Shown: positions 25,625 through 41,671 of the stretch, piece by piece
How the letters are laid out: the number at the start of each line of letters is the position of its first letter
How positions within the stretch are numbered: position 1 is the first letter of the stretch
IMG/VR virus record: IMGVR_UViG_3300005512_000034
Span: 1-59,148 of that record
Strand: one strand, 5' to 3'
Length of the DNA stretch: 59,148 nucleotides
DNA from: a virus
Lineage: Duplodnaviria > Caudoviricetes
Translations under genes and position numbers: made by a program
Notes under the pieces: generated by a model
The model's input: only the letters and a program-made list of their open reading frames with translations
Database searches by the model: none
Told to the model about the DNA's origin: nothing

Positions 25625-25626
25625 GA

Positions 25627-26460
25627 CTACTCCGCGGCGCCGGGCCCGAAGTTGACCGTGGGGCTGTCGTTGTAGGTCACGCTCGCACCGTCGCTGCCGT
25701 GCCCCGCGATGCTGGCGAGGTAGGCGTGCCCCTTCTGGAGGCCGCCCACGTCGAAGCGCTCGTAGAACCCGAACCCGGTCAGGCTGTACGAGGTCTTCCC
25801 TGCCTCCCAGACGCAGCCCGTCGGGCTGTTGCTGCCGCTGGTCTTGCCCTGCCAGAACAGGTGCAGGGTCGCCGAGACCGGGTCAGCGTCGCAGGCCAGC
25901 ACGCCGGTGCCCGTCGCGCTGATCGCCACCGAGTAGTCGGTCGTCAGGGGGTTGGTGCCGTCGTAGCCGAAGACGCGCAGGGTCACGGCCGCGTTGCCGC
26001 CTGCCGCGGTGCCGCTGGTCACGGCGCCCGCCGAGTCGAGCAGTTCGCTGCTGACGACCTGGTTCGCGCCAGCTGCGCCGCCCACTGTCGCGTCGGCCGC
26101 GATCTTCGCCGCCATCGCAACGAGCACCGCGTCCACGTCCGCGAAGGACCCCGCCGTAGTGGCGATCGCCGTGCCGTTGATCGTGACCGTGTAGTTCGCG
26201 GACCCGTCGAAGCTGGTCACCGTGATCCGGGCGCGCCGGTGCTGAACCGCCTCGCGGAGCCCCACCTTGACCAGGGCCACGACCGCGTTGTCCAGGTCGA
26301 CGCCTGCGCTCTCAGCGGCGGGGGGCCGGCTCCACTCGGTCGGGCTGGCGTCCGCCTGCGTCACCCACTGCGGGTTGCGCCCAGCGGCGCGGACGACGAG
26401 TTCGTTTGCGGTCTCGGCGCTGCTGCTCATGGGGCCGGCTCCGGTGTCGCGGCTCACCAT
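25627..26460 (-). CDS. Putative virion structural protein (start may be 26430)
   Basis: Ala/Thr/Gly-rich beta-type sequence after the tail genes. Confidence 0.65.
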   Translation of the reverse strand: MVSRDTGAGPMSSSAETANELVVRAAGRNPQWVTQADASPTEWSRPPAAESAGVDLDNAVVALVKVGLREAVQHRRARITVTSFDGSANYTVTINGTAIATTAGSFADVDAVLVAMAAKIAADATVGGAAGANQVVSSELLDSAGAVTSGTAAGGNAAVTLRVFGYDGTNPLTTDYSVAISATGTGVLACDADPVSATLHLFWQGKTSGSNSPTGCVWEAGKTSYSLTGFGFYERFDVGGLQKGHAYLASIAGHGSDGASVTYNDSPTVNFGPGAAE

Positions 26461-26487
26461 AGCCTATGGTCACGTCAAGGGCTTTGC

Positions 26488-26542
26488 GATCGTCCGCTTG
26501 CGTTCTGGCGTGTATGCGCTACTATGTCCGTGTAGCAAGGAG
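26488..26542 (+). promoter_or_regulatory. Cassette promoter with operator, copy 1
   Basis: GATC-N6-TTGCGT-16-TACTAT; palindrome 26518-26536. Confidence 0.85.
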
Positions 26543-26547
26543 CCAAC

Positions 26548-26736
26548 ATGACCCGCGCCGACCTCAACGCAGCCCGCATCGAAGCCAGCCAGAAGCACGC
26601 GCGCGCGCTCAAGCGGTGGGAGCGTGCCCGCGCGACGAAGACCTGGGGCCCGCTGGGCGCCGAGCGCTACCAGCAGGCGACTCTGGACATGCGCCGGACC
26701 TACCGCGCCCGCGAGGCCGCATACGGGCGAGCCTGA
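26548..26736 (+). CDS. Small basic hypothetical protein, copy 1
   Basis: 62 aa, AAGGAG RBS. Confidence 0.75.
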   Translation: MTRADLNAARIEASQKHARALKRWERARATKTWGPLGAERYQQATLDMRRTYRAREAAYGRA

Positions 26737-26775
26737 GCAATGGCAGCACGCCCCAGAGTAGCGAAGCCCCCTTGC

Positions 26776-26830
26776 GATCGTCCGCTTGCGTTCTGGCGTG
26801 TATGCGCTACTATGTCCGTGTAGCAAGGAG
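26776..26830 (+). promoter_or_regulatory. Cassette promoter with operator, copy 2
   Basis: Identical to copy 1. Confidence 0.85.
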
Positions 26831-26835
26831 CCAAC

Positions 26836-27024
26836 ATGACCCGCGCCGACCTCAACGCAGCCCGCATCGAAGCCAGCCAGAAGCACGCGCGCGCGCTCAA
26901 GCGGTGGGAGCGTGCCCGCGCGACGAAGACCTGGGGCCCGCTGGGCGCCGAGCGCTACCAGCAGGCGACTCTGGACATGCGCCGGACCTACCGCGCCCGC
27001 GAGGCCGCATACGGGCGAGCCTGA
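26836..27024 (+). CDS. Small basic hypothetical protein, copy 2
   Basis: Identical translation to 26548-26736. Confidence 0.75.
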   Translation: MTRADLNAARIEASQKHARALKRWERARATKTWGPLGAERYQQATLDMRRTYRAREAAYGRA

Positions 27025-27052
27025 GCAATGGCAGCACGCCCCAGAGTAGCGA

Positions 27053-27070
27053 AGCCCCCTTGCGGGGGCT
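27053..27070. terminator. Hairpin between convergent genes
   Basis: AGCCCCC-TTGC-GGGGGCT. Confidence 0.6.
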
Positions 27071-27127
27071 CCAGCGCCGTGGCGCTCACTGCCGAATTCT
27101 AAGCCCAGCGAGCGGACCGTAGCACGC

Positions 27128-28369
27128 TCACTGCTTGAGGGGATGCACGATCAGGTTCGGCCACGCCCAGAAGTAGTCGGCCGAGGGCTGGCGCTTGAAC
27201 ACGCGGGCGCTGCCTTGGGCGCCGAACTTGGTGTACTTGCTGACCCGGCTCGACGCGGTCGGGTCCTCGATGAGGTAGACCCCCTCAGGGTCCACGTCGA
27301 AGTCGTCGATCGTGTTCGCGCCGGTGCCCGGGACGTACTTGAAGATCGGCCCGTCCAGGTTGGGCGTGTACACGTCGATCCGGTCGAGGGCGGGGTCGCT
27401 CGCGTAGACGTAGTGCAGGTCGGCGCGCAGCTGCGAGACCGGGTTCGCCCGAGTGACCTGCGTCTGCACGGCGCCCGTGTACGTGTTGATCTGAAAGAGC
27501 TCGTGCGTGCCGGTGGTGTCCCCGCTCGCATAGAGCCAGTCGCCGTTGTACGCGAGGAACAGGTCGCCCGCGCCCGGGGTGAGGCCCGCGGGGGCCACGT
27601 CCCAGACCCAGGTGAAGCCCGAGGTGCCGAGGCCGCCCTCGTTGGCCAGGTCCGATCCGCTGACTGCCTCGATGCAGCGGATCGTCGCCCCGCTGGCGTG
27701 CCCGCTCGCCGCTCCGATCAGGAAGCACTGCTCGCCGTTGCTGTACAGGCGGCGGACGGCGGCGTTGTGGTTGTACGGACCCCACTCGGCCGCGCCGGTG
27801 TTGGCGACCAGGCTGTAGGCGTTGTTGCCCGAGGAGCACAGCACGCGCTGACCGTCGCAGTGGAGCGGGCGGTAGGCGACCGCGACGTTCCACTCCTGCG
27901 AGAGGTCCGACAGCAGGTAGGACCGGACGAAGGTCGCGGCGTCGCTGTAGATGACCCGCACGCCGTCGGTGCATCGGATCGTACCGGTCGTGCCGGTCGT
28001 GATGGTGCCGACCAGGGTCATGTCGCTGGTCTTCAGGATGTAGATCGCGGTCCCGGTCGTGTCCTGCGTGATCACGTACTGGCCGGTCGTCAGGACCGCG
28101 GTGCGCCCGCTGGTGTTGAACGCCTTTGCGGTGGCTGGCGCTACCGTCGTGTCCAGCGTCGGGATCTGCGCCTGCTGCCCGTCGGCCATGCGGTTCGCGG
28201 CGTCGTGGCACGACAGGAACAGCAGATCGCGGTGACCGAGTAGGTAGTTCAGTTCGGCGTTCGTCATGATCGCGCCACCCATGAAGCCGGGCGACTCGAT
28301 GCCGAGCGCGGGCTGCTGGATGTCGGACGCGACCGCGTCGTAGGCGAAGGAAATCTCGGAGCCAGCCAT
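27128..28369 (-). CDS. Putative tail fibre/receptor-binding protein with beta-propeller-like repeats
   Basis: Follows baseplate wedge genes; repeated DG.RV/W beta units. Confidence 0.65.
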   Translation of the reverse strand: MAGSEISFAYDAVASDIQQPALGIESPGFMGGAIMTNAELNYLLGHRDLLFLSCHDAANRMADGQQAQIPTLDTTVAPATAKAFNTSGRTAVLTTGQYVITQDTTGTAIYILKTSDMTLVGTITTGTTGTIRCTDGVRVIYSDAATFVRSYLLSDLSQEWNVAVAYRPLHCDGQRVLCSSGNNAYSLVANTGAAEWGPYNHNAAVRRLYSNGEQCFLIGAASGHASGATIRCIEAVSGSDLANEGGLGTSGFTWVWDVAPAGLTPGAGDLFLAYNGDWLYASGDTTGTHELFQINTYTGAVQTQVTRANPVSQLRADLHYVYASDPALDRIDVYTPNLDGPIFKYVPGTGANTIDDFDVDPEGVYLIEDPTASSRVSKYTKFGAQGSARVFKRQPSADYFWAWPNLIVHPLKQ

Positions 28370-28372
28370 GGA

Positions 28373-28975
28373 TCAAACCTCTCGGGCAATGCGGCCGAGC
28401 CCGACCCCGGAGGGGCCGAAGTCAGCGAAGGGGGACGGGGCGAGCCCGCTGGGATCGGCGACGCCGTCGAAGCCCACAGGGGCCTCCACGATGCGCGCGT
28501 AGACCCCGGCAGGGCTCCCGCTCTGGAACATGCGCCGGACCTCGGCGCGGCGCGTCTCGCGCATCAGCGACGGGCGCAGGGCGTAGATCGTGAACGCAGC
28601 GGGGAACAGGTCCCGATACCAGACCTTGATCGGGTCCATGGTGTGCTGCGCCATCAGGATCATCTCGTCGGGGTGGCCCTGGCCGATGTTGTGGATCACC
28701 CGGGCCGCGATGAAGCCCCGGTACTCGGCGTCGCTGAAGTCGAGCCGCTGCTGGCCGACGATCTCGCCCCACTGGTCGAGGCTCTTGCCGGTGGCCAGGC
28801 CGAACGCGGTCCCGGTCAGGACCTCCCAGCCGAGGTCCTCCATGACCTGGAGCCCGCCCTCGGAGAGCCCGCGGATCAGCGCCTGAAAGTTCGGCTTGTT
28901 GCGAAACTGCGAGTAGAGCCGCCCCAGCGCGGTGTCGTTGCGGGACGGGTTGTAGACGTATGGCCAGTCGCTCAT
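28373..28975 (-). CDS. Baseplate wedge protein (DUF2612-like)
   Basis: LYSQFRNKPNF, ATGKSLDQWGEIVGQ.R, DAEYR. Confidence 0.8.
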   Translation of the reverse strand: MSDWPYVYNPSRNDTALGRLYSQFRNKPNFQALIRGLSEGGLQVMEDLGWEVLTGTAFGLATGKSLDQWGEIVGQQRLDFSDAEYRGFIAARVIHNIGQGHPDEMILMAQHTMDPIKVWYRDLFPAAFTIYALRPSLMRETRRAEVRRMFQSGSPAGVYARIVEAPVGFDGVADPSGLAPSPFADFGPSGVGLGRIAREV

Positions 28976-29049
28976 GCCCGCAGCCTATCCGATCGTGGGT
29001 GATCGTCTGCTTGCACTTCCTGTTGGACCTGCTACTATGACGGGGTAGC
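28976..29049. promoter_or_regulatory. Back-to-back promoters: leaderless (minus) and cassette/operator (plus)
   Basis: Minus GATCGGA-TAGGCT-N6-ATG; plus GATC-N6-TTGCAC-16-TACTAT, palindrome 29031-29049. Confidence 0.85.
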
Positions 29050-29075
29050 GAGACACCGACCAACCGGAGCCGACC

Positions 29076-29273
29076 ATGACCATGACCACCAAGATCCACG
29101 CCCTCTCCACCGTCGCTCACTCGATGGGCACCGACCTTACCTCCATGCGGGCGGACGGTCGCCGCCTGTTCTGGTGCGCCTGCACCGGCGGCGAGCATAG
29201 GGTTCGCGAGGTCAACACCTCAAGCGCGTGGTCGGTTGACCTCGTGACCGGCTCGGTGCGGGTGCTGTCGTGA
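29076..29273 (+). CDS. Small hypothetical protein
   Basis: Motif promoter, GGAG RBS. Confidence 0.65.
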   Translation: MTMTTKIHALSTVAHSMGTDLTSMRADGRRLFWCACTGGEHRVREVNTSSAWSVDLVTGSVRVLS

Positions 29274-29479
29274 GGCCGCCCGCCTTTGGCGTCCGTCCGA
29301 GCGTTGGCGCCTGGGTCGGCGTTGAGTTGGCCGAGGGTTCGGAGGTCGCAGTCTTGACGGCGCGTCACCGTAGTCCTGCCGCTGCCAGGCGTGCGCTGCG
29401 GCGAGTGTTGGGCGGCTATGTGGAAGGCGGCATCTTGGCGGCTGTTCCAAGGTCGCTGCCCGTTGTGGCTTACCCGTGA
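29270..29479 (+). CDS. Hypothetical protein
   Basis: GTGA coupling on both ends. Confidence 0.5.
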   Translation: MRPPAFGVRPSVGAWVGVELAEGSEVAVLTARHRSPAAARRALRRVLGGYVEGGILAAVPRSLPVVAYP

Positions 29480-29952
29480 ATGTGGCGCTTGCCAACGGGA
29501 GCATCAGCGCCGGACTACGCGCCAGGCTTCGCACGCTTGCTCGCGCAGCCCGCCGGTGTGGGTGGGAGATCCTGGATGTCGATATCGACGTGGCGAGTCG
29601 CCACGTAAGCATAGACCTCATCCGAGGCCCGCTGAATGCACCAGATCGGAGGCTGGTTATCCGTGGAACGTGGGACCTGGCGCACCTGGAGCGCTTCACC
29701 TACAACCGCGGCCACGAGCCCAGGGGGCGACGTGGTGATCGCTACATGGCCGCGACTTGCACCCCCGTCTTCCTGGGGCGTCAAAGTGGGCACTTGCGCG
29801 ATGTCTTGGGACTGCTCGGCCGCTACATCGAGGACAATCAGGCGACGGTGATCGTACCCGCCGTCGCCACAGCGGTCGCGTCCACCGCGGTGTCGGTCGC
29901 GGGGACCAGGGTCACGCCGACCACGCCGTCCACGCCGCCGATCGCGGTCTGA
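29476..29952 (+). CDS. Hypothetical protein, 3' end runs antisense into baseplate J
   Basis: GTGA coupling; atypical codon usage. Confidence 0.5.
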   Translation: MNVALANGSISAGLRARLRTLARAARRCGWEILDVDIDVASRHVSIDLIRGPLNAPDRRLVIRGTWDLAHLERFTYNRGHEPRGRRGDRYMAATCTPVFLGRQSGHLRDVLGLLGRYIEDNQATVIVPAVATAVASTAVSVAGTRVTPTTPSTPPIAV

Positions 29953-30992
29953 AGCGCCAGCACGCGCAGGTCCTCGCCCACGCCGAGCCCGGTGAACACG
30001 CCGGTGATCGCCGCCTCGACTGCGGCGGACACGTCCGCGAGGACGTACCCGGTGGCCAGCACGACCGTCGCGGTGACGTTGACCGGGGTCGCCGTCGCCC
30101 AATCCCAGCGCACGGTGCGCGAGGACCCTGCAACGTCGGTGACCGTCTTCTCGACATCGGTCCCCATCTGCTTGATCCCCGCGGTCGCGCCCGTGTAGAG
30201 CGTCTGCGCGACGGTGTCCTGCTGCGCCGAGGTCAGCGTCGAGGGGTAGATCACGACCGCGATGCTGTTGGGCTCCAGGAGCTTCCCTTCGATGGTCTCT
30301 GGGACCCGGCTCGCGTTCTGGAGCACGATGCAGGCGAGCACGCCCTCGACGGCCAGCACCGCAGAGCGGATGGCGCCGGGGCTGTTCTTGCCGGGCTTCT
30401 GCAACTCGGTCGCGATGCGCCCGCGCAAGGCCGCGTCGGTCTCCTCGTCGCGCCCAGGGGTCGCGGCTGCGGCGTTGCTGACGGTGCTCCAGCCGGTGCG
30501 CGTGGTCACGATCTTGTCGATGGCGGCTGCGTCCGCGGTGATGGACCCAGCGTCGACGCAGGTGACGACGACGGTGTCCGAGCCCGCGCCGGTGAAGGTC
30601 TTGGACTCGCTGATCTCCCAGCGCTGGCGGTCGTCGGCCCCGCCGCCCTCGACTAAGTCGCCCTGGTGGATGACCGTCGCCTCGGTCACGGTCAGCGTGA
30701 CGGTCGCCGAGGACTTCGACGCAGCCAGGCGGGTCACGCCGACCAGGGCTGCGAGCCCGTCGAGCGGGACGCCCACGGCGTTGCTCCGGTCGCGCTGGTC
30801 GTAGGTCGCCTGCTGCGTGTCGGACAGGTCGCCAAGCTCAGCGGCGAGCGCAGCGACGAGGGACGACGTGACCACGTCGCTGGTCCAGTCGATGGTCACG
30901 CCGAGCGCCGTCTCGATGCGCGACCGCATGGACGCGACGAAGTCCGCGGTGCGAGGGACAGCCAGGCCGGTCGAGGTCAGGTAGGACGCCAT
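29838..30992 (-). CDS. Baseplate J/gp47-family protein
   Basis: AVGVPLDGLAALVGVTR, GRDEETDAALRGR, AIRSAVLAVEGV. Confidence 0.9.
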   Translation of the reverse strand: MASYLTSTGLAVPRTADFVASMRSRIETALGVTIDWTSDVVTSSLVAALAAELGDLSDTQQATYDQRDRSNAVGVPLDGLAALVGVTRLAASKSSATVTLTVTEATVIHQGDLVEGGGADDRQRWEISESKTFTGAGSDTVVVTCVDAGSITADAAAIDKIVTTRTGWSTVSNAAAATPGRDEETDAALRGRIATELQKPGKNSPGAIRSAVLAVEGVLACIVLQNASRVPETIEGKLLEPNSIAVVIYPSTLTSAQQDTVAQTLYTGATAGIKQMGTDVEKTVTDVAGSSRTVRWDWATATPVNVTATVVLATGYVLADVSAAVEAAITGVFTGLGVGEDLRVLALQTAIGGVDGVVGVTLVPATDTAVDATAVATAGTITVA

Positions 30993-31067
30993 GCGCGCAG
31001 CCTATCCGATCAGTGGGCGATCGTTTGCTTGCATCCTGCGGCCATAGTGCTACTATGAGTGTGTAGC
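30993..31067. promoter_or_regulatory. Back-to-back promoters: leaderless (minus) and cassette/operator (plus)
   Basis: Minus GATCGGA-TAGGCT-N6-ATG; plus GATC-N6-TTGCAT-16-TACTAT, palindrome 31049-31067. Confidence 0.85.
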
Positions 31068-31089
31068 GAGACACCAACCGGGAGCCAAC

Positions 31090-31359
31090 ATGACCAGCGA
31101 CCTCAACCCCATCTTCCACGTCAACACCATCAGCGCTGGACGCCGCAACACGCGGCAGTCGGTGCATGACCTTGTTCGCGCGGGCTTGGTTTGGACCGGG
31201 GCGCAACACAGCGCCCTCGCGTCTACCCCGACCCGGGCGATTCAGGCCCGCCTGGGGCGCTTGCCCGGTTGTGTGCCCCCCTCCATGTCCGAACGCACGC
31301 TCGCGGAGTGGCGCATCGTGCCTGGGGCGCACCCTCTCAGCCCTACAACGGAGCGATAG
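31090..31359 (+). CDS. Hypothetical protein
   Basis: Motif promoter, GGAG RBS. Confidence 0.65.
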   Translation: MTSDLNPIFHVNTISAGRRNTRQSVHDLVRAGLVWTGAQHSALASTPTRAIQARLGRLPGCVPPSMSERTLAEWRIVPGAHPLSPTTER

Positions 31360-31768
31360 GCCCGCTTCGGCTGAACCAGTACCACTGCGGTGCCTGGTTC
31401 AGCGCGCGCCCGTCGCGGGGCTTCGTGCCGATCTCCAGTTCGCCCTCGTCGGTCAGCACCGTGACGGTGATCGCCAGCGTCTCGGTCGCCGCGGTGAAGG
31501 TCGCCTGGTAGTCCGAGATGGACTGCACGCCGCGCACGCCCAGGATCGTCGAGCGGATGCCCGCCGAGATGGACGACAACGGCGGCGGCTTGATCTGCAT
31601 CCAGTCGAGCCAGGGCACGCCCTCGCGGGTGTCGAGCAGGTACTCGCCGACGTGCAGTTGCAGCGCGACCTGGATCCGCTGCCCGATCAGTTCGAGCCCG
31701 GTGATCAGGCGGGGCTGGAGGGGCCAGTCTCCATCGGTGGTCAGGCCCACGTCGGCATAGGTCGGCAT
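31343..31768 (-). CDS. Baseplate wedge / sheath initiator (gp25-like)
   Basis: QRIQVAL...GEYLLDTREGVPW...IRSTILGVRGV; leaderless TAGACT-N6-ATG. Confidence 0.8.
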   Translation of the reverse strand: MPTYADVGLTTDGDWPLQPRLITGLELIGQRIQVALQLHVGEYLLDTREGVPWLDWMQIKPPPLSSISAGIRSTILGVRGVQSISDYQATFTAATETLAITVTVLTDEGELEIGTKPRDGRALNQAPQWYWFSRSGPIAPL

Positions 31769-31784
31769 GCGGGCAGTCTATCCC

Positions 31785-32048
31785 CTACGTGATCTCGCCG
31801 CCCGACGCGGTGATGTTGGTCGGCGCGTCGCCGGCGTCGTCGGTCCCGCCGAAGTCGCCCGCGCTGAACCCGACCTCGGCGTCGTCGAGCATGTCGCGGA
31901 TCATCGCCTCGATCGCGTCGAAGATGGGCTCCGCGTTGGCGTCGAACTCGGCGCCGTCGAAGTCGCCCCCGTGCAGGGTGGCCATGGCGGCCTTGGCGGC
32001 TGCGCGCGCGATGTCGGCGTAGTGGTTGGTCGTGCCGTTGAGTGCCAT
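31785..32048 (-). CDS. Small baseplate-region protein
   Basis: Between spike and gp25-like genes. Confidence 0.65.
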   Translation of the reverse strand: MALNGTTNHYADIARAAAKAAMATLHGGDFDGAEFDANAEPIFDAIEAMIRDMLDDAEVGFSAGDFGGTDDAGDAPTNITASGGEIT

Positions 32049-32052
32049 GCCG

Positions 32053-32730
32053 CTACTCCGCTTTCACCCGCGTCGCTGCGAAGTCGCTCGACGTGGTGCT
32101 GGTTGGGTTGACCTGCGGGACCGCAGAGGGGGATGTGGGCGCGCCCAGGTTGCCCGTGTGGACGTGCGCGTTGAACACTGTCACCATGGCTTGGACCTGG
32201 GTGATCAGCGTGTTGAGCCGGGTGCTGGTCTTCTGCGCGAGGGCGACGAACTCCGACGCAGCTGACGACCCGAGGAGCACCGAGAGCCCCTCGACGACCA
32301 GCGCGGAGCCGTCCCGGCCAGACGACGGCACCGGGCCCGCGACCGCCACCGGGAGCACAACCGAGTCGCGCAGGTCGAAGCGCCGGAGGTCCTGCGGGGT
32401 CGCGTCGCTGCTGGGCTTGTCCAGGTACTCGTCGAGCGAGCGCTCCGCGACCAGCAGTAGGCACTCGTCGCCGACCGCCAGCGGGAACGTGAGCGCGTAG
32501 CCCGACGCCATCGGGAACATGACGGGGCGCGAGGCGATGGGGAGGTGCTGCTCCTGGACCACCTTGCCCGAGGCGTCCCGGTAGGCGTGGCGGATCGCGA
32601 TCTGCACGGTCGCGCGCTGCGTGGCGTGGTCGTAGGCGGTGATGATCGCCGGGATCGCCGTGCGCACCCTGGCCACCTCGGACCGGGCGAGCGCCTTCGT
32701 AGCGCCGAACTCGTCGAGCGGGTCGGACAT
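32053..32730 (-). CDS. Baseplate spike, Gp138-like N-terminal domain
   Basis: RTAIPAII..YD, PVMFP...LTFPLAVGDECLL..AERSLD, RRFDLRD, C-terminal HVH. Confidence 0.85.
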   Translation of the reverse strand: MSDPLDEFGATKALARSEVARVRTAIPAIITAYDHATQRATVQIAIRHAYRDASGKVVQEQHLPIASRPVMFPMASGYALTFPLAVGDECLLLVAERSLDEYLDKPSSDATPQDLRRFDLRDSVVLPVAVAGPVPSSGRDGSALVVEGLSVLLGSSAASEFVALAQKTSTRLNTLITQVQAMVTVFNAHVHTGNLGAPTSPSAVPQVNPTSTTSSDFAATRVKAE

Positions 32731-32756
32731 GGAGCCTCCGCGCGTAGGGTAGCCGC

Positions 32757-32803: not shown

Positions 32804-32807
32804 CAGC

Positions 32808-34205: not shown

Positions 34206-34227
34206 GGGGCAGCCTATCCGATCGGGC

Positions 34228-34569
34228 TCAGGACACGTACAGCGTCTCGGTCTCCGACGCGGGCAACTCGTCGGTCGGGTAGAACATCAGGAACGTGGTC
34301 ACACCGATGTCCTCGCGCCGGGGCTCCGCGTTGCCCCGCACGTAGATCACGCCCGCGAGCCCGGTGATGCCGTGGCTCTCGAAGGGGGCCCACGACGTGG
34401 TCAGGCGCACGCCCTGCACGATCGGCGTCCCGGTCGAGTCGCCGAGGTCCATGTACCAGGCGGCCAGCCGTTCGCGCCAGACGAAGCGCAGGGTGTACAC
34501 GGCGTCGCCGAGCGTGACCGTGTAGGAGTGCTCGGGCAGGTCGGGGAAGGCGGGCAGGCGGGTCGGCAT
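34228..34569 (-). CDS. Baseplate plug-like protein
   Basis: YTVTLGDAVYTLRFVWRER..AWYMDL. Confidence 0.75.
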   Translation of the reverse strand: MPTRLPAFPDLPEHSYTVTLGDAVYTLRFVWRERLAAWYMDLGDSTGTPIVQGVRLTTSWAPFESHGITGLAGVIYVRGNAEPRREDIGVTTFLMFYPTDELPASETETLYVS

Positions 34570-35150
34570 CAGATCCCCACTACCCTTGCGGCGACGCTTC
34601 GGTCGCGCGGGAGCGTGGCGCGCATGATTGCCTTGTCCTTTGCGGCAGCCTGGGCGTCGTCCACGACCTCGGCGCCTTGCTGCCCGAGGTTCTGCGCGGA
34701 CGCAGCGCCCGGGACCGCCACAACGGCGACCGGGACCTCGACCGTGAGCACCGTCGCGAACTCGACCTGCTGGAGCACCATGTCGAAGACCAGCGCTCGG
34801 GTCTGGCCCTCGTCGTGCGCGTAGGACTGGATCAGCAGGTCGCGCTTGTCGCCGAGCTTCGAGCCCAGCAGGGTCACGGGGCGACCGATGCTCTCGTCCA
34901 GCCAGTCACGCGCAGCCTGGAGCCTGGCGGCCCCCACGAGGGGTACAGCGCCCGCGGCCGGCGTGTAGGGGGTCTCGGTCACCGCGAGGGTCACGAGCAG
35001 CGTGAGCGGCTGCCTGACGGCGTGGTCCACGACGCTGGAGCCGTCCTCGATCGGGTGCTGCGTCAACTGGACCACCGGCCGGTGCCCCACGCGCATCACG
35101 TTGCCGACCAAGGTCGCGCCGTCGTCTTGTCGGAAGAGGACCATCGCCAT
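34569..35150 (-). CDS. Baseplate/tail tube initiator (Dit-like)
   Basis: TQHPIEDGSSVVDHAVRQP; follows tape measure; leaderless TAGGCT-N6-ATG. Confidence 0.8.
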   Translation of the reverse strand: MAMVLFRQDDGATLVGNVMRVGHRPVVQLTQHPIEDGSSVVDHAVRQPLTLLVTLAVTETPYTPAAGAVPLVGAARLQAARDWLDESIGRPVTLLGSKLGDKRDLLIQSYAHDEGQTRALVFDMVLQQVEFATVLTVEVPVAVVAVPGAASAQNLGQQGAEVVDDAQAAAKDKAIMRATLPRDRSVAARVVGI

Positions 35151-35226
35151 GTGCGCAGCCTATCCGATCGCGGGGCGATCACCTGCTTGCAGTCTCTCGC
35201 CGGGTCCGCTACTGTATCCGTGTAGC
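35151..35226. promoter_or_regulatory. Back-to-back promoters: leaderless (minus) and operator promoter without RBS (plus)
   Basis: Plus GATC-N6-TTGCAG-17-TACTGT; palindrome 35208-35226. Confidence 0.8.
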
Positions 35227-35315
35227 GAAGACAACCCCTTGAGTTCCGCCGGGACCTCTCCGTCCTGCAACTCCCCCCCCCCTTCGTTGACGGGGTTGGA
35301 GAGGCCCGGCCTTGC
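35220..35315 (+). ncRNA. Candidate small RNA: long hairpin with C10 loop
   Basis: GCCGGG(A)CCTCTCC 35248-35261 pairs with GGAGAGGCCCGGC 35298-35310; inner CAAC/GTTG; loop TC10TTC; no RBS/ATG. Confidence 0.45.
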
Positions 35316-37121
35316 TCAGATTGCGGCGCCCGTGAGCGCGGCGCTGGTGCGGCGAGCCTTGGCCCGCGACTCACGCTGGAGCACCTGCTCCAACTGCGCC
35401 TCGTTCATGCCCCCGCCCCCGTTTACGGTGACGCTGTTGGTGTCCCCGCCGAAGGTGTTGGACGTGCTCGATGCGTTGTTGGTGGTGTTCGTCGCGCTGG
35501 TGATCGAGCGGACCAGGTTCGCGCCGGGGATCTGAGACGCGACCGCGCTGGAGAAGCCCCCGCCCAACCCGCCCGCGAGCAACTCGAAGCCGGGGCCCGA
35601 CATGATCTGGTCCTGGAGTGCCGCGATCGCTGCCTTGACCCGGCCGATCGTCTTGCTGATCCGGTCGGCGTTGTCGTCGAGCCGCTCGAAGCCACCCGCC
35701 AGGGCATCCACCCCAGCGGTCGCCGACTCCACGATGAAGATCAGCCCGTCCAGCGCGGTCCCGACCTCGGGCACGGCGATGCCGGCCAGGTTGGCCAGCC
35801 CGTTGATCACCAACTGGAGCCCCGCCTGCACCAAGTCCACCAGCACAGCGCGCAGCGGCGCGGTCGACTCCCACAGATGCCCGAACGCCGCCGCGAGTTC
35901 TCCGGCCGCCTTGCGCAGGTCGCCCGCCTTGTCGGTCAGCCCGTCGAAGCCCTCGACTTGGCTCAGGAAGTGCCCGAGCACCGAGTCGCCGCCCCGGAGG
36001 AACACCATCACGTCCTGGACGGCGAGGGCGATCAGCGTGATGGCCGCCGCTGCGGCGGCGATGGCGGCCACGATCTCGGCTGCCCCGATGCTGCTGATCG
36101 CCGCCACGACCGGGAGCACGACCTCCAGGGCGACCGCCAGGGCCTCGGTCAGTTTGATCACCCACAGCGTGATCTGTGCGCCCGCGATCACGCCTGCGGC
36201 TGCGGTGAACGCCGCCCCGATGCCGAGCACGATGGGAGCCCAACCGCCGATGGTGTCCCGCACGACGCGGTCAGCCCCGACGACGACCCGCTGCACGAGG
36301 CGAATCCCAGCGACCACGCGGTCGGTCCACTTCTCGATCCGCTGCTGGATCAGGTCCCGGTTCGCGACGAACCACTCGCGGAAGCCCGTCAGCATCTCGG
36401 TCAACACCGGCATCAACTCGACGCCGATCGCGTTCTTGAGTCCGCCGACGGCGTCCTTCGCGTCTGCGAGGCGGTCGATGAACTCCTCGCCGGCCGCGGT
36501 CGCTTCCTGGTTGAACACGATCCCGAGTTCGCGCGCCTGGCGCCGCATCTCCTCGATGCCGGCGGCGCCCTGGTTCAGCAGCGGAAGCAACTTCGAGCCG
36601 CCCCGCCCGAAGATCTCCTGTGCAGCTGCCGTCCGCTTGTGCCCCTCCTCCAGGGTCAGCAGCCCGTCGGCGATGCGCTGGAAGGACTCCTCGGGGGCCA
36701 GGTCGACCAGGTCCGCCGCGGCAAGCCCGATGTCTCGGAGCGCGTCCGCCTGGGCCGTCGAGCCCTTCGACGCCTCGACGAGCGTCTGCGCCATCCGACG
36801 GAAGCCCGTCTCCAGGTCGCCCATCTCGGCGCCGGACAACTCCGCGGCCTTGGCGAGCTCCTGGAAGGGCTCGACCGCGAGCCCGAGGCGCTGCGCAGCC
36901 TTCGCCACGTCGTCGAACGTGGAGGCGGTCGTGAGGACCGTCGCGCCGATCGCGCCCATGGCGATCCCGATGCCGGCCGCGACCGTCTTGGCGACCCCGA
37001 GCACGTCGCCCATGGCCCCCTTGATATCGCCGAGGGCGCTGTCGAAGTTCTTGAGGCCCTTGTCGTCGACCTCGACGCCCAACTTGACGAGCAGTTCTCG
37101 GATCGTGTTGCGCTCAGCCAC
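35316..37121 (-). CDS. Tail tape measure protein
   Basis: IRELLVKLG, Ala-rich helical, AAQEIFGRGG..LLPLL; position after chaperone. Confidence 0.9.
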   Translation of the reverse strand: MAERNTIRELLVKLGVEVDDKGLKNFDSALGDIKGAMGDVLGVAKTVAAGIGIAMGAIGATVLTTASTFDDVAKAAQRLGLAVEPFQELAKAAELSGAEMGDLETGFRRMAQTLVEASKGSTAQADALRDIGLAAADLVDLAPEESFQRIADGLLTLEEGHKRTAAAQEIFGRGGSKLLPLLNQGAAGIEEMRRQARELGIVFNQEATAAGEEFIDRLADAKDAVGGLKNAIGVELMPVLTEMLTGFREWFVANRDLIQQRIEKWTDRVVAGIRLVQRVVVGADRVVRDTIGGWAPIVLGIGAAFTAAAGVIAGAQITLWVIKLTEALAVALEVVLPVVAAISSIGAAEIVAAIAAAAAAITLIALAVQDVMVFLRGGDSVLGHFLSQVEGFDGLTDKAGDLRKAAGELAAAFGHLWESTAPLRAVLVDLVQAGLQLVINGLANLAGIAVPEVGTALDGLIFIVESATAGVDALAGGFERLDDNADRISKTIGRVKAAIAALQDQIMSGPGFELLAGGLGGGFSSAVASQIPGANLVRSITSATNTTNNASSTSNTFGGDTNSVTVNGGGGMNEAQLEQVLQRESRAKARRTSAALTGAAI

Positions 37122-37123
37122 GG

Positions 37124-37387
37124 CTACTCCTGCGCCCGCTCCTCCTCAGCGATATCGAGCGCGTCGAGGGCGAGATGCGCCTCCAGCATATCCCCCAGGG
37201 TCCAATGGTCCCGGACCTCGACCAACGTGCAGGGCCAGCGCTGGTCGAGCACGGGCCGCAAGATCCACCAATTCACGCCCCCTCGGGCTGCCCGGTCGAA
37301 GGCGCGGCGGGTGCGAACGCTGAGCCCTCGATCCTCGTCTGACTGCTCGGTCAGTCCTTGGATGTACCGGGCAGCGGCAGAAAACGG
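37124..37387 (-). CDS. Tail assembly chaperone extension, probably reached by -1 frameshift
   Basis: Open -1 frame from CCGTTTT (37381-37387) to ...WTLGDMLEAHLALD; no obvious own RBS. Confidence 0.6.
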   Translation of the reverse strand, partial: PFSAAARYIQGLTEQSDEDRGLSVRTRRAFDRAARGGVNWWILRPVLDQRWPCTLVEVRDHWTLGDMLEAHLALDALDIAEEERAQE

Positions 37388-37758
37388 TTGAGCCGGATCA
37401 CGTTCCACAGCGCCTGGTAGAGCTCCATGTAGTTGCCGAGGTAGGCGGCGTCGAAGTCCAGGTCGTTGCTGAGCGCCTTGCCCGCGCGCATCGTGTTGGA
37501 GAGGGTGTCGCGGATCAGGCCGACCAACTCGGGCGAGGCCAGGGCCTTGGAGATGGTGTCGCCGAAGGCGGACAGGTCGCCCACGTCGCCGTCGCCGTCC
37601 ATGGCGCCGATCAGGTCCATCGCGGGCGCCGCGGTGCGCATCCACGCCAGGGAGACAGGCATGCCCGTCAACGCCCCGTGCAGGACGACCTGGTACTTGA
37701 CCGACTGCCCGCTGGCGTCGGGCACGGTGAACTCTCGTAGGTTCTGCTTGCTGTCCAT
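37351..37758 (-). CDS. Tail assembly chaperone
   Basis: Between tube and tape measure; DFDAAYLGNY.EL...NRF; GAGGAGG RBS. Confidence 0.75.
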   Translation of the reverse strand: MDSKQNLREFTVPDASGQSVKYQVVLHGALTGMPVSLAWMRTAAPAMDLIGAMDGDGDVGDLSAFGDTISKALASPELVGLIRDTLSNTMRAGKALSNDLDFDAAYLGNYMELYQALWNVIRLNRFLPLPGTSKD

Positions 37759-37877
37759 TCTGGACCTCCTCGCTGTCGGGAGCATAGCGGACGGGACCCC
37801 AGAACGCACCAACGCCGCCCCAGGTTGCCCCAGGACGGCGTTTCAGGCCCTCGACCGCCCTGACGGGCGCGGAAGGC

Positions 37878-38336
37878 TCAGACGAACAGCAGGGAGCCGT
37901 GTGCGGCCTTGCTCTTGAACTGCGGCAGGGCGATGCGCCAGACCCGGTCGCCCGCCGTCTTGCCCTTGTCCATCGTGGGGGGCGAGATGAAGGTCGCGTA
38001 CTGCGACGCGCCCGCGTCCCCGTTGACGGTGTCGAGCATCTGGAAGTTGAGCGGCGGGATGGCACCCACGCTGCGAGCGGTCCGCTGCGCGGCGTACAGG
38101 GTCCCGAGCAACTTGTTGGCCAGGCTCGTCTCTTTGACCGTGATGTTCGCGTATGCCAGCGTCGAGTTGAGGACGTTCGCGATGGATTGGCCGTCGGCGG
38201 TCTCCATCATCTCCACGTCGTCCTGGCTGTACTCGAACGCGATCACGCCGCCCTCGGCGCCGCCCGTGACGCGGACGGTGCCGACCATCAGGAAGACGAG
38301 ATCGAGGTTGTAGGTCTTGAGGGGTGCAGCAGCCAC
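37878..38336 (-). CDS. Tail tube protein (DUF3277-like)
   Basis: LKTYN...ADG...ITVKETSLANKLL...RVWRI; follows sheath. Confidence 0.8.
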   Translation of the reverse strand: MAAAPLKTYNLDLVFLMVGTVRVTGGAEGGVIAFEYSQDDVEMMETADGQSIANVLNSTLAYANITVKETSLANKLLGTLYAAQRTARSVGAIPPLNFQMLDTVNGDAGASQYATFISPPTMDKGKTAGDRVWRIALPQFKSKAAHGSLLFV

Positions 38337-38348
38337 GGGGGCCTCCTA

Positions 38349-39434
38349 TCAGGCAGCGAGAGAGGTCTGGCTGGCGTAGACGTTGACGGTGAAGGTCCGG
38401 GCCCCGACTGCGAGCTTGGCGCGCACGGTGAAGCGCAGGCGCTCGGCCGCGATGTCCGCCGCGGTGATGGTCTCGGCGACCGCGGAGACCTCCTCGGGGT
38501 CCGGGTCGAAGTGGTTGGCGCCCTGGCCCTGGGCGAGCCGCCCGTTGAGGATGGCCAAGATCATCGCCTGGCCGCGCCCGTCGATCGTGATCTTCTCGCC
38601 TCGGTTGGACGTGTCGACCACGGCGGCCGCGATATCCTCCTCGACCCGGGTGGCGAACCAGTCGGTCGTGACGATCTCGTAGAGCGCCCGGCCCACGATG
38701 TTCTTGCCGTCGTCGACGAAGTAGCCCTCGGTCGCGTAGGCGAGCCCGACGTTGGCGCCGTTGGTGAAGATGTACTGGCGCTCGGTCTCGGAGATGTCGG
38801 TCGTGAGGCTGTCGCCGCTCTTGACCCGCCCGTACCAGGGCGCGCTCTGGAAGTCCGGGTCGAAGGCACCGCGCGAGGCGGCCCAGCCCATGTCGTTCCA
38901 GTCGGCGTCGGTGTCGTGGTAGAGCCAGCCGGTGCGCTCGTAGGCGGCCGCGCTGCTGAACGCCGAGGGCTGGCCGGAGGTCTTCCAGTCGGCGTTGCTG
39001 GACTGGAAGATCCCGAGCATCTTCTTGTCGTTGGTCTCGATGGCGGCAGCGACCGCGATGGTGTCCGCGTCGGTCCGGCTCTCGTAGCAGACGATGTAGA
39101 AGTCGGGGTCGTGCGCGATGATCGCGGTCAGCGCCGCGGCCTCGGTCTCGGCGGGGCTGGACACGTCGTCGATGTACCCGACCTTCACCTTGGACGGGCT
39201 CGGCGACTGCGCGAACATCCGGGTGACCATGGCCAGCGTGTTCGCGTGGATGTAGCCGGCCGTGTTCGCCGCGGTCGCCTCGGAGAGCGACGAGTAGGTC
39301 GCCGTGCGCTGGCCGTTGAGGCTGTTGTTCGACAGCGCCACGATGATCATGGGCGTCGTGAAGGAAGCCCGGGGGACCGCCAGCGCCGACAGGAAGATCG
39401 TGACCGTGATGTTTGCGTCGTGGGTGAGCGCCAT
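38349..39434 (-). CDS. Tail sheath protein (DUF3383-like, compact)
   Basis: MFAQSPSPSKVKVG, DWF..RVEEDI, KITIDGRG. Confidence 0.8.
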   Translation of the reverse strand: MALTHDANITVTIFLSALAVPRASFTTPMIIVALSNNSLNGQRTATYSSLSEATAANTAGYIHANTLAMVTRMFAQSPSPSKVKVGYIDDVSSPAETEAAALTAIIAHDPDFYIVCYESRTDADTIAVAAAIETNDKKMLGIFQSSNADWKTSGQPSAFSSAAAYERTGWLYHDTDADWNDMGWAASRGAFDPDFQSAPWYGRVKSGDSLTTDISETERQYIFTNGANVGLAYATEGYFVDDGKNIVGRALYEIVTTDWFATRVEEDIAAAVVDTSNRGEKITIDGRGQAMILAILNGRLAQGQGANHFDPDPEEVSAVAETITAADIAAERLRFTVRAKLAVGARTFTVNVYASQTSLAA

Positions 39435-39445
39435 GCGTCAGCCTC

Positions 39446-40021
39446 TCAGGGGTAGGTCGAGGTGTTGACGAGGGCGTCGGGATCGACCTCGTCGAGAGGG
39501 AGCACCTGGGTGGTGATCGTCGTGACAGCCGTCGCGAGGGCCGTCTGCGTCTCCGCGTCGGGCTGGGTGCTGTGGATGTACTCGATCTCCACGTCCTGGC
39601 TCCATCGGGGCTCAAAGCCGGTGTCGAGCAGCTGCGCGATGTTCCTGCGACCGCCGCCCGCGCGGATAGTAACCCCTTGCGCCGTCAAGAGCGCAAGGCT
39701 GGCGGGGCTGCCCAGCAGCATGAACGCGCGCTCCATCCACTCGCCCGCGTCCGTGCCGTAGCCCTGGAGGCTGATCGTCATGCGCCGGAACTGCTTGTAG
39801 TAGACGATGGGGTCCGCGCCCGAGAGGCTGTTGCACTCCTGCCGGTCGCCGACTCCGACGTTCGCGAGTTCGCGCACCGTGACGTAGGCAGCCGAGGAGC
39901 GCGGCGCGTCTCCGGTCGGCTCGGCCATGCGCACCTGGGCGTCAGCCAGGCCCGCGGCGTCGCCCATCGCCTTGAACCAGACCCGGAAGCCCTGGATCGC
40001 CTGCTCGCTGGTCGACGCCAT
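39446..40021 (-). CDS. Neck/tail terminator protein
   Basis: RMTISLQGYG...LLDTGFEPR; upstream of sheath. Confidence 0.7.
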   Translation of the reverse strand: MASTSEQAIQGFRVWFKAMGDAAGLADAQVRMAEPTGDAPRSSAAYVTVRELANVGVGDRQECNSLSGADPIVYYKQFRRMTISLQGYGTDAGEWMERAFMLLGSPASLALLTAQGVTIRAGGGRRNIAQLLDTGFEPRWSQDVEIEYIHSTQPDAETQTALATAVTTITTQVLPLDEVDPDALVNTSTYP

Positions 40022-40386
40022 CAGGGGGCCTCCTGGACCTTGGTCACCAGCGCCTCGGAGCCCGGGATCAGGAACGACCCGTAGTCCTCGACCAGCGACA
40101 CGTCGTAGGTCCCGGCGTAGAGCCCGGACGCGATCACGACTTGGTCTCCGCGCGACCCGCTGGACTGCGACGCCGTCTGGAGCGCGCCGGTGTCGACGAA
40201 CACGCGCAGGGTGCTCCGGGTCCGGTAGCCCTCGGGGAGCCGCTGGAGGTCCTGCTGCCGGGCCGGCTGCACGTCGCACGCGACCGTGGTGTCCGTCGCG
40301 GCCCCATCGACCGGGCGCCCGTCGGTGCCGGTCGTCCCCGCAGCGTAGCGGCGGCGCGTGACGTTGTGCGTGGGGAACAGCGGCAT
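40021..40386 (-). CDS. Head closure protein
   Basis: VQPARQQDLQRLPEGYR; leaderless TACGGT-N6-ATG. Confidence 0.75.
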   Translation of the reverse strand: MPLFPTHNVTRRRYAAGTTGTDGRPVDGAATDTTVACDVQPARQQDLQRLPEGYRTRSTLRVFVDTGALQTASQSSGSRGDQVVIASGLYAGTYDVSLVEDYGSFLIPGSEALVTKVQEAP

Positions 40387-40467
40387 GCCGCAACCGTACC
40401 CGATCGCCGGGCGATCGTCCCCTTGCACGGTGCGCCCATTGTGCTACTATGTGCTCGTAGCAAGGAG
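40387..40467. promoter_or_regulatory. Back-to-back promoters: leaderless (minus) and cassette/operator (plus)
   Basis: Plus GATC-N6-TTGCAC-16-TACTAT; palindrome 40443-40461. Confidence 0.85.
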
Positions 40468-40473
40468 CCGAAC

Positions 40474-40956
40474 ATGAGGGACGCAGACACCCTGCCGCTG
40501 CTGGCCGCCCACCGTGGGCACGCCATCGCGGTCCACGCGCAGCGGGTCTTCCGCGAGACGCACGACGAGTGCAACTACGACGAGCAGCCGCTCGACCTGG
40601 CACTCCAGGCCGCCGTCGACTGGCAGGCGCGGTCGCTCGCTGCTGCGGTCGCCCGTGCGTCCCGGGGCGCGGCACCCAAGACGGCAGGCGCGGCGGTCCT
40701 CGGGGCGCGCGCGCTGCTGGCCTCGACCGTTGACGCCGGCATGTCCGGTATGTCGATCCGGATCGAGCGCATCGTCGGAGACCGCGCCGTGATCCTCGAC
40801 ACCATGGCCCACGAGTACCAGCGCTACAGCATCGAGGCGTGGGCCTGGTACGACCTGTGCGAGTGGGCCATGTGGGACCAGGCGCAGCGGGACAACTACG
40901 GCGACTGCGACAAGCCGCCGCCCCCGTTCCCGCGTCCCGAAGTCGGGGCGGCGTGA
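40474..40956 (+). CDS. Hypothetical protein (MRDADTLPLL...)
   Basis: Motif promoter, AAGGAG. Confidence 0.7.
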   Translation: MRDADTLPLLAAHRGHAIAVHAQRVFRETHDECNYDEQPLDLALQAAVDWQARSLAAAVARASRGAAPKTAGAAVLGARALLASTVDAGMSGMSIRIERIVGDRAVILDTMAHEYQRYSIEAWAWYDLCEWAMWDQAQRDNYGDCDKPPPPFPRPEVGAA

Positions 40957-41213
40957 TGGGCCGCGCGAACTGGTGGACGACCACGGGCCGCGCTGCGCTC
41001 GCCGCGCTGGAGATCAACCAAGCGCAGAACGCTATGGAGTTGCTCAGGCACTCGATCGCCTACGCCTGGGACATCGCGGGCCCCGCGCCCAGCGCCATCA
41101 CGAAGGCGTCGGCGTGCCTGGAGGGCGGCGTGGTGATGGTCGACGGCGGCGCGTTGACGCTCAGCGAGCGGGCAGTCGACGACGCGATCGCGGAGTTGCG
41201 CCGGCTGGGTTGA
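40956..41213 (+). CDS. Hypothetical protein
   Basis: TGATG coupling. Confidence 0.6.
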   Translation: MGRANWWTTTGRAALAALEINQAQNAMELLRHSIAYAWDIAGPAPSAITKASACLEGGVVMVDGGALTLSERAVDDAIAELRRLG

Positions 41214-41215
41214 CC

Positions 41216-41671
41216 TCAGCCCGTCCTGATTTCGTAGTCGATGGACTGACGCAAGCGCCCATCCCTAATCAGCGGGTTGTCGGCCCCCTTGGCTCGGATC
41301 GTCGACTCCGCATTGGGCGGGTCGTCGAGTTGGCGCATGGTCTCTTGCACGTCGGCGACTGCGCCCAGGCCGATCCGGTTGAGGCCCACAGCCAGCGCCG
41401 GCAACCCGCCCCCGTCGACGACCTCTTCCAAGACCTCGGCGATCTGGTCCTCGTAGACTTCCTGCTTGCTGTCCACGGTGGAGCGCAGGAACGACCGCTC
41501 GGGGATCGTCCGGGTCCCGAACTCGTTGGCGGCAGCCACGACCGCGAGCGGCGTCCCGTCCGCGGAGTCGCCCGCGTCCCCCCGGATGCCGACGAAGATC
41601 CCCGTGTCGGGCAGGCCGAGCAACGCGGCGAGCAGTTGCCGGTAGCCCAGGTCGTTGTCGCGGATGGTCAC
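41216..41671 (-). CDS. Neck / tail completion (virion morphogenesis) protein
   Basis: NEFGT..IPERSFLR, PNAESTIRAKG.DNPLI.DG.LRQSI. Confidence 0.85.
   Translation of the reverse strand: MTIRDNDLGYRQLLAALLGLPDTGIFVGIRGDAGDSADGTPLAVVAAANEFGTRTIPERSFLRSTVDSKQEVYEDQIAEVLEEVVDGGGLPALAVGLNRIGLGAVADVQETMRQLDDPPNAESTIRAKGADNPLIRDGRLRQSIDYEIRTG

Follow-up and report, generated by a model that had tools for sequence, protein, structure and literature searches.

The window analysed here is the whole of the IMG/VR record IMGVR_UViG_3300005512_000034, a virus of the Caudoviricetes of 59,148 bp with a G+C content of about 70%, rated 100% complete by CheckV. Its layout is that of a contractile-tailed phage, with head, neck and tail genes on the minus strand according to PHROGs and Pfam matches and to an analysis of G+C content at third codon positions (GC3). 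The neck/tail block (25627..41956, minus strand) is interrupted by small plus-strand gene cassettes, and the junctions concerned carry a two-faced intergenic module, in which a rightward promoter-like sequence stands back to back with a leftward -10-like element facing the next structural gene. PHROGs and Pfam matches, a GC3 of 0.91-0.98 and N-termini conserved with those on L009, a contig of a related phage, define the structural genes of this block. From right to left they are a neck gene (41216-41956), an adaptor (40021-40386), a tail terminator (39446 to about 40024), sheath (38349-39434), tube (37878-38336), chaperone (37351-37812) and tape measure (35316-37121), two tail-block genes (34569-35150 and 34228-34569), a baseplate hub (33402-34205), two further tail-block genes (32053-32730 and 31785-32048), a gpW-like gene (31343-31768) and a gpJ-like gene (29838-30992). 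Past the gpJ-like gene the block extends with further baseplate or fibre genes down to 25627, namely a baseplate gene (28373-28975), a tail-block gene (27128-28369) and the leftmost gene (25627-26430 or 26460).

The earlier note had proposed that several of these junctions hold the same short intergenic module, and the four stretches it named, 28976-29049, 30993-31067, 35151-35226 and 40387-40467, do align as one, with 26461-26547 and 32731-32807 as variants. From left to right, the module comprises CAT (the structural start), GCGCAGCCTATCC, GATCG-N5-6-GATCG, TNNGC-TTGCA(N), 16-17 nt, GC-TACTAT-G...GTGTAGC, a leader, GGAGCC and the ATG of the cassette. At the gpJ-like/28373-gene junction (28976..29075), the leftward TAGGCT-GCGGGC-ATG (start 28975) and GATCG-N5-GATCG are followed by a -35 element TTGCAC, a palindrome at 29031-29049 and a long leader (GAGACACC...GGAGCC), which opens a cassette of three open reading frames (ORFs; 29076..29952, plus strand) at 29076-29273 (65 aa), 29270-29479 (69 aa) and 29476-29952 (158 aa, ORF3). 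The gpW-like/gpJ-like junction (30993..31089) has TAGGCT-GCGCGC-ATG (start 30992), a GATC pair, the -35 TTGCAT and a palindrome at 31049-31067 ahead of an 89-aa gene (31090..31359, plus strand). At the neck/adaptor junction (40387..40473), TACGGT-TGCGGC-ATG (start 40386), CGATCG-N5-CGATCG, the -35 TTGCAC and a palindrome at 40443-40461 precede a two-ORF cassette (40474..41213, plus strand), whose ORFs at 40474-40956 (160 aa) and 40953/40956-41213 (about 85 aa) overlap at stop and start. The module between the tape measure and the 34569 gene (35151..35315) consists of TAGGCT-GCGCAC-ATG (start 35150), a GATC pair, the -35 TTGCAG and a palindrome at 35208-35226; no cassette ORF follows this promoter, and beyond it lie a TTG frame antisense to the tape-measure gene, lacking a Shine-Dalgarno (SD) sequence, and a hairpin.

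Both variants keep the two faces. The compact module between the hub and the 32053 gene (32731..32807) has a leftward GCTACCCTA (TACCCT at 32746-32751) with GGAGG and the ATG at 32730, and a rightward half with the -35 TTGCGT and a palindrome at 32778-32796, lacks the GATCG pair, and serves a 197-aa gene (32808..33401, plus strand). Between the 27128 and 25627 genes (26461..26547), a leftward TAGGCT (26461-26466) is followed by a GACACC-GGAGCC leader to the ATG at 26430, which resembles the leader of some cassettes, and the rightward half (GATCGT, -35 TTGCGT at 26498-26503, -10 TACTAT in the palindrome 26518-26536) leads into a 62-aa gene without a family match (26548..26736, plus strand). This last unit, 288 bp long, is repeated exactly and in tandem (26484-27064), the gene recurring at 26836-27024 and the duplication junction falling in a short shared TTGCG beside a putative terminator loop. 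Just one copy is present in L011, an independent contig with 100% identity to the window over 23306-33785; the duplication represents either a polymorphism or an artefact of assembly. The cassette starts suggested earlier at 26548, 29076, 31090, 32808 and 40474 all have a GGAG-type SD and an ATG, whereas the one at 35220 falls inside the promoter at 35208-35226. Two leftward elements stand alone on the minus strand: GGATAGACTGC (TAGACT-GCCCGC-ATG; 31773..31783) before the gpW-like gene, and GATCGGATAGGCTGCCCC-ATG in the 22-nt gap before the hub gene (34206..34227).

The rightward half is one copy of a predicted promoter found across the genome, with the order GATCGT, -35 TTGC(A/G)N, 16-17 nt, -10 TACTAT within GCTAC-N9-GTAGC, leader, GGAG and ATG. 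The pattern GCTACNRTN6GTAGC, with at most one mismatch, has 25 matches against a mean of 0.17 in 100 shuffles, and exact GCTAC-N9-GTAGC occurs at 23 sites; no other spacing of GCTAC and GTAGC from 0 to 20 nt was found in the genome, save one N5 variant at 16400. At 20 of the 23 sites TTGC(A/G)N lies 16 or 17 nt upstream of TA(C/T)NNT, which is a sigma-70/SigA-type layout; both hexamers are conserved, and the spacer between them differs from site to site in sequence and by a single base in length. An SD and an ATG-initiated ORF of 55-197 aa follow 11-26 nt on at 19 of these 20. The remaining three palindromes are second, overlapping copies inside the -35/-10 spacers of early promoters (6861-6896, 7627-7662 and 11931-11966, each with GCTAC-N9-GTAGC twice). 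As these are under no hexamer constraint, we read the palindrome as a protein-binding operator rather than a by-product of the -10 element, and the paired overlapping copies at 6861, 7627 and 11931 suggest cooperative binding of a regulator. The palindrome is probably the operator of one phage regulator, and all units would then form one regulon. All seven promoter copies in the neck/tail block point rightward, antisense to the structural genes, four on the minus strand (58710, 57011, 52802 and 50961) are co-directional with the packaging genes, and the others serve small left-arm genes. With about 20 copies genome-wide, four of them co-directional with packaging genes, this is a predicted general regulon promoter and not a device specific to the tail operon.

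Several further features of this promoter family are worth recording. Its orientation depends on the block, following the genes in the packaging region and opposing them in the neck/tail, and the packaging-region copies drive small ORFs at the junctions between small and large terminase and between large terminase and portal. Downstream of the promoter at 57011 lie two adjoining pentapeptide-repeat proteins (55569-56629, minus strand), which may be DNA-mimic or counter-defence genes. The N5 variant of the palindrome (GCTACACTGCGTAGC) belongs to a variant promoter at 16390-16440, in a divergent region between a helix-turn-helix (HTH) gene (15702-16337, minus strand) and rightward genes from about 16440, which may be a genetic switch region. 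A two-faced module also occurs outside the tail block at 21329-21386, where a leftward TACGAT-CGCCGC-ATG stands opposite the rightward promoter at 21368.

Using the gpJ-like protein and the motif as queries, we found two related phages, both known from short contigs alone. R1 consists of contigs L015 and L009, plus the near-identical L010, and R2 is contig L012; their gpJ-like proteins are 55% and 56% identical to that of the window, respectively. Motif scans of viral contigs found the module in L009 and L015 and nowhere else, and the distant J-like loci on L013 and L014 (31-35% identity) have no module detectable by regular expression. In both R1 and R2, the structural genes are interrupted by antisense units with the same module.

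High-GC DNA yields many open antisense frames, and in a genome of 70% G+C the plus-strand ORFs could be shadow ORFs and the repeats non-functional. Cassette GC3 is 0.70-0.92, against 0.91-0.98 in the structural genes, with 0.88/0.70/0.77 for the three-ORF cassette and 0.90/0.82 for the two-ORF cassette at 40474; the values of 0.70 and 0.77 are weak, and most cassette ORFs lack a family match. We nevertheless regard shadow ORFs as extremely improbable, given the promoter-SD-ATG geometry at 19 of 20 sites, the true gaps that the structural genes leave at the cassette positions, and the homologues at protein level in other contigs. The product of 32808-33401 is a DUF1643 protein (Pfam PF07799, E 5.8e-31; also phrog_3230), for which a sequence search of the PDB gave no solved relative and a literature search turned up no paper on function. 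A search of 5.8 billion proteins gave three homologues of ORF3 (141-215 aa), and over 86 aa ORF3 shares 73% identity with an R2 cassette at a different junction; the 31090-31359 product shares the motif GL(V/L)WTGAQH(S/A)AL with R2 3119-3355 (minus strand). Judged by these sequence features, the plus-strand cassette ORFs are genuine genes. PADLOC, PHROGs, Pfam and Atlas clusters gave nothing on the cassette proteins beyond DUF1643/phrog_3230, and an Atlas search of the 160-aa protein (40474-40956) yielded no usable lead, with all template modelling (TM) scores below 0.5. The R2 homologue of ORF3 (L012 3370-3866, minus strand) is split over two frames, by a frameshift or a sequencing error.

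The leftward element is defined by a TANNNT hexamer, which faces the structural gene at all six module junctions of the window. In four of these modules (28975, 30992, 35150 and 40386) the hexamer lies exactly 6 nt before an SD-less ATG, and the pattern TANNNT-S6-ATG has four matches against 0.18 expected. The longer sequence GGATAGGCTGC has exactly four copies, each of which is on the minus strand and stops 5-6 nt short of a tail-gene ATG (28975, 30992, 34205 and 35150), with a one-mismatch copy before 31768; the genes it precedes lack the GGAG/GAGG SD seen in other structural genes. The layout of a leaderless, -10-only start, with a 6-nt gap, is found at 31768 as well as at the four modules, and with a 5-nt gap at 34205; the terminase start at 52577 has TAGCCT-N6-GTG, and the N6 layout also occurs once in R1. 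Across copies T1, A2 and T6 are kept and the middle varies (TAGGCT, TAGACT, TACGGT, TACCCT, TAGCCT, TATGCT, TACTTT, TACGTT). In Mycolicibacterium smegmatis, the SigA -10 motif is TANNNT, 6-13 nt upstream of the transcription start site (TSS) and without base preference at NNN, and leaderless transcripts are frequent in this species (PMC6448022). Within a module, the two -10 elements stand back to back, the leftward about 55-60 bp from the rightward.

A fixed distance of 5-6 nt from the ATG is also what a start-associated translation signal would show, with one long late transcript reading through the antisense units. The start-associated sequence (SAS/ESAS) of cluster K mycobacteriophages has the core GGGATAGGAGCCC 3-7 bp before start codons (PMC3203893). 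The GGATAGG of the window's element resembles this core, and the copy at 34209 lies in a 22-nt gap without a cassette. The relatives tell against this explanation. Read in the structural direction, their modules have CGATCG-N6-7-CGATCG, 5-9 nt and GCGCTACCCTGA or a variant (TACTTT, TATGCT, TACGTT), followed by a 6-nt gap to the ATG at the tape-measure/next-gene junction, as in the window, and otherwise by a short leader with its own canonical SD. The distance from element to GATCG pair is kept while that to the start codon ranges from 6 to about 26 nt; the position of the hexamer is therefore fixed relative to the module, not to the start codon, and the hexamer is not an SD. Conservation of T1, A2 and T6 alone is the pattern of a -10 hexamer rather than of rRNA pairing, and the SAS consensus, with at most two mismatches, has one match in the window against 1.78 expected, not at a gene start. 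From phage to phage, the element also tracks whether a junction has a cassette. Scored by eye in the three phages, TANNNT faces the structural gene at 15 of 15 cassette-bearing junctions and at about 2 of 13 cassette-less ones, a count that leaves out two modules facing another cassette, both without TANNNT. At the J/next-gene junction, R2 has no cassette and a plain SD, R1 and the window a cassette and TANNNT. On balance, we hold a translation signal to be fairly unlikely.

Cassette content differs among the phages at the same junctions. Between the tape measure and the next gene, the window has its ORF-less promoter and R1 an 88-aa gene (no data for R2). Between J and the next gene, there are three ORFs in the window, a 58-aa ORF in R1 and none in R2, where the gap is 12 nt. 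At M3/M2 the window has no cassette and a 3-nt gap, R1 an 83-aa gene and R2 an 86-aa gene 82% identical to that of R1, and at M7/W the window has the TAGACT element without a cassette and R1 a cassette (no data for R2). Cassettes also move: in R2, the homologues of ORF3 and of the 31090 gene stand side by side, at the junction downstream of the M2 homologue, and the hub/next-gene cassette of R1 encodes a protein 55% identical to the product of gene 12668-12850 in the early region of the window, a gene under a copy of the same promoter. The comparison of relatives that the earlier note called for thus found the module kept at tail junctions and the cassettes different, absent or relocated. Its idea of a bidirectional module that makes insertion non-polar draws its support from this sequence comparison, to which the two-faced module, the cassette turnover and the 15/15 against about 2/13 distribution of TANNNT contribute. 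In R1, L015 150-860 carries at least two tandem antisense cassettes (promoters at about 805 and about 180) directly upstream of the tape measure, a position occupied in the window by the chaperone genes.

Such relocation is what would be expected if the module served mainly as a linker for recombination. Cassettes would then shuffle between junctions and genomes by way of its 60-90 bp of near-identical sequence, of which the palindromic CGATCG-N5-6-CGATCG is a part, and the promoter pairing would be incidental. Besides the homologous cassette genes at different junctions, ORF3 has 73% identity between phages in which the gpJ-like proteins reach 55-56%, and the 288-bp duplication comprises a promoter plus gene unit with its junction in the shared TTGCG. 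Against this stand two observations: a search of the genome for tyrosine or serine recombinases (integrase, resolvase) found none, and shuffling leaves unexplained both the conservation of the hexamers as against the variable spacer and the strict SD-ATG geometry. We give this account a small chance as the chief function of the module; as an additional role it is compatible with the explanation that we favour below and does not exclude it.

At their 3' ends, the cassettes converge on the structural genes at the coordinates given in the earlier note: the stops at 33401 (DUF1643 gene) and 33402 (hub) abut, 41213 and 41216 are separated by 2 nt, and the overlaps at 31343-31359 and 29838-29952 are 17 and 115 nt long. 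The last 115 nt of the 29076..29952 cassette are antisense to the 3' end of the gpJ-like gene, and homology to relatives stops at 29838. That no terminators are visible holds for 33401/33402 and 41213/41216, where shuffle-controlled folding gave no significant structure, and does not hold elsewhere, as three of the six cassette ends have hairpins. A GC-rich hairpin at 27049-27070 (core GCCCCC-ttgc-GGGGGC) lies between the convergent ends 27024(+) and 27128(-), with z -2.96 on the minus strand (0/200 shuffles fold as well) and -0.75 on the plus strand. A 14-bp hairpin at 31370-31403 begins 11 nt beyond the stop at 31359 (z -2.65, 1/200 shuffles), and one at about 35248-35310, after the promoter at 35208 and ending at the tape-measure stop, has z -3.61 on the plus strand (0/200) and -2.03 on the minus strand (4/200). 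There is also a 10-bp local stem at 29841-29868, in a segment with a z of just -1.3. None of these structures has a U-tract. Inside the hairpin at about 35248-35310 is a run of ten C residues (35273-35282), which could be a slippage or sequencing-error site.

As the earlier note suggested, unterminated early cassette transcripts could, in an excludon-like manner, silence the tail genes by antisense RNA or polymerase collision until a regulator occupies the palindrome. Every promoter copy seen in R1 and R2 is antisense, like the seven in the neck/tail block of the window, two ends have no significant hairpin and two more overlap by 17 and 115 nt, and the ORF-less promoter at 35208 could make solely antisense RNA against the tape-measure 3' end. 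As the main function of the arrangement this is nevertheless quite improbable, with hairpins after three units, the same promoter co-directional with the packaging genes at four sites, and cassette presence at each junction varying among relatives, so that no junction depends on it.

We consider it probable that the plus-strand units are antisense, moron-like cassettes belonging to one regulon of about 20 promoters, and that an outward, -10-only restart promoter makes their insertion non-polar. Each unit would be an autonomous transcription unit with one copy of the genome-wide promoter, and on the far side of each inserted module the -10-only TANNNT would be aimed at the downstream structural gene. 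Four modules of the window would give a leaderless mRNA, the others and most of those in the relatives a short SD-bearing leader. Expression of the tail genes would then come from several short units, each with a promoter of its own, and would not depend on one read-through late transcript; a cassette could accordingly enter in antisense without polar effects, and junctions could gain, lose and exchange cassettes. This explanation builds on observations, namely the motif statistics, the reality of the genes, and a module that relatives keep while their cassettes turn over; promoter activity of both halves, leaderless starts, an operator role of the palindrome and the timing are what we infer from them.

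Several points weigh against it. The leftward element has no recognisable -35, and two of its copies (34209 and 31773) stand without a cassette, the former just 22 nt past the upstream stop, where it would also fit a translation signal. The GATCG pair occurs also at promoters without a divergent gene (57011, 12540 and 11429), so the pair is not assignable to the leftward promoter. The module copies are paralogous and the relatives homologous, and the counts given above are thus not independent events. Recognition of the promoter by the sigma factor of the host is an assumption, and a generic sigma-70 scan of 25500-42500, which uses the Escherichia coli consensus, called no promoter at all; TTGCAN and TACTAT score below its threshold.

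A stronger version of the proposal adds a temporal toggle, in which one regulator, bound at the palindrome, the CGATCG pair or both, would shut the approximately 20 dispersed early promoters and, from the same sites, license the divergent -10-only promoters, many of them leaderless, with early antisense transcription holding the tail off beforehand. The tail would then be a string of individually switched mini-units, and a cassette travelling with both faces of the module would be a self-compensating moron that enters an operon without polarity, which would account for the rapid cassette turnover. We think such a two-way toggle rather unlikely.

Morons are extra transcription units inserted between the late genes of lambdoid and HK97-type phages. 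The cassettes resemble them in being extra genes between conserved structural neighbours, present, absent or different in relatives, and neighbours parted by a cassette in one phage are adjacent in another (J/next gene and M3/M2); each unit has its own predicted promoter-like element, some followed by a hairpin. They differ in number, as 15 kb of the window hold six such junctions and R1 has still more, in being all antisense in the tail block, in sharing one near-identical promoter that also drives early-region genes, and in the outward -10-like element that each insertion presents to the downstream structural gene. We class them as a variant of the phage moron; as no integrase was found, lysogenic conversion is unlikely as their role. 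A literature search for antisense morons or divergent promoters in tail genes gave nothing comparable among the papers listed, which is weak evidence of novelty.

Other known systems share single features with the module. Excludons, described in Listeria, involve long antisense transcripts between oppositely oriented genes. The overlapping or abutting convergent 3' ends are similar, two of them without a detectable terminator, whereas here several units have hairpins and the arrangement recurs many times with one promoter family. The late promoters of Mu and of P2/P4 are activator-dependent, with a poor -35 and an upstream dyad bound by C or by Ogr/Delta. The leftward elements are likewise -10-like without a -35, with the CGATCG pair as a dyad in the -35 position, though here the dyad also occurs at promoters without a divergent gene; no homologue of the activators turned up, though none was searched for. 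Cluster A stoperators and the conserved inverted repeats of phiC31 are repressor sites dispersed through a phage genome. A short site present about 20 times at or near promoters similarly implies control by a single protein, yet the site predicted here is a palindrome of 5+5 bp with a 9-nt gap, overlapping the -10 and +1, with no sequence relation to those. In the symmetry-driven bidirectional promoter, the -10 elements overlap and the TSSs are about 18 bp apart; the back-to-back -10 elements of the module are too far apart for this class, to which we do not assign it. Like the cluster K SAS, the leftward element is a short asymmetric motif a few bp before the starts of a subset of genes, with GGATAGG in common, and inverted repeats sometimes lie upstream of the SAS; in contrast, the SAS holds the SD core AGGAG and is confined to the non-structural arm (PMC3203893), and the motif here precedes tail genes, is SD-less and has TANNNT at -12 to -7. 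The SAS consensus is not matched here, GGATAGGCTGC having just the GGATAGG core in common with it, and we do not place GGATAGGCTGC in the SAS family.

The rest of the genome provides the setting. The minus-strand morphogenesis block also includes the small terminase (53261-53848), the large terminase (51003-52577), portal and protease genes identified by PHROGs and Pfam, and the major head protein (42567-43835). Between the chaperone and the start of the tape measure, a 227-nt stretch (37124-37350) has no ORF call of its own, and it lies where the frameshift extension of a tail chaperone would usually be expected. The only matches of the sheath protein are in enterobacterial phages, at 27-28%, and a near-identity DNA search of 26000-42000 against a phage database gave no match. 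The left arm encodes two XRE-type HTH proteins (3822-4454 and 15702-16337), two DNA methylases (a D12-class enzyme at 13179-14093 and a 612-aa N6_N4 methylase at 328-2166) and a UvrD-type helicase; searches of the genome for sigma-70 region 2 and for WhiB were negative. Rfam at gathering threshold gave nothing in the whole window, and the single tRNA called, tRNA-Arg(tct) at 20844-20934 (minus strand), lies inside the long minus-strand ORF by the two-faced module at 21329-21386. Two tetranucleotides are depleted in the window, CTAG being nearly missing (2 observed, 68 expected) and AGCT reduced (49 observed, 179 expected). GATC, with 451 occurrences against 410 expected, is neither depleted nor concentrated, and the idea of a Dam/GATC-methylation switch was therefore dropped.

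The usual picture of a phage late operon is a long co-directional transcript that tolerates an insertion only if this is co-oriented or free of terminators. In the window and its two relatives, up to seven antisense units interrupt the contractile-tail block, and the junctions keep a two-faced module, an observation that is real, lying far beyond chance and conserved in relatives. Almost all cassette genes are orphans, and their turnover is more rapid than that of the structural genes, as would be expected if they acted in host takeover or counter-defence. With its 23 sites, the palindrome gives an uncultured phage lineage a regulon under a single regulator that is open to testing. Should the outward element prove to work as a promoter, it would offer a compact natural bidirectional promoter part for high-GC hosts, and the module would represent a general route by which accessory genes enter essential operons without polarity.

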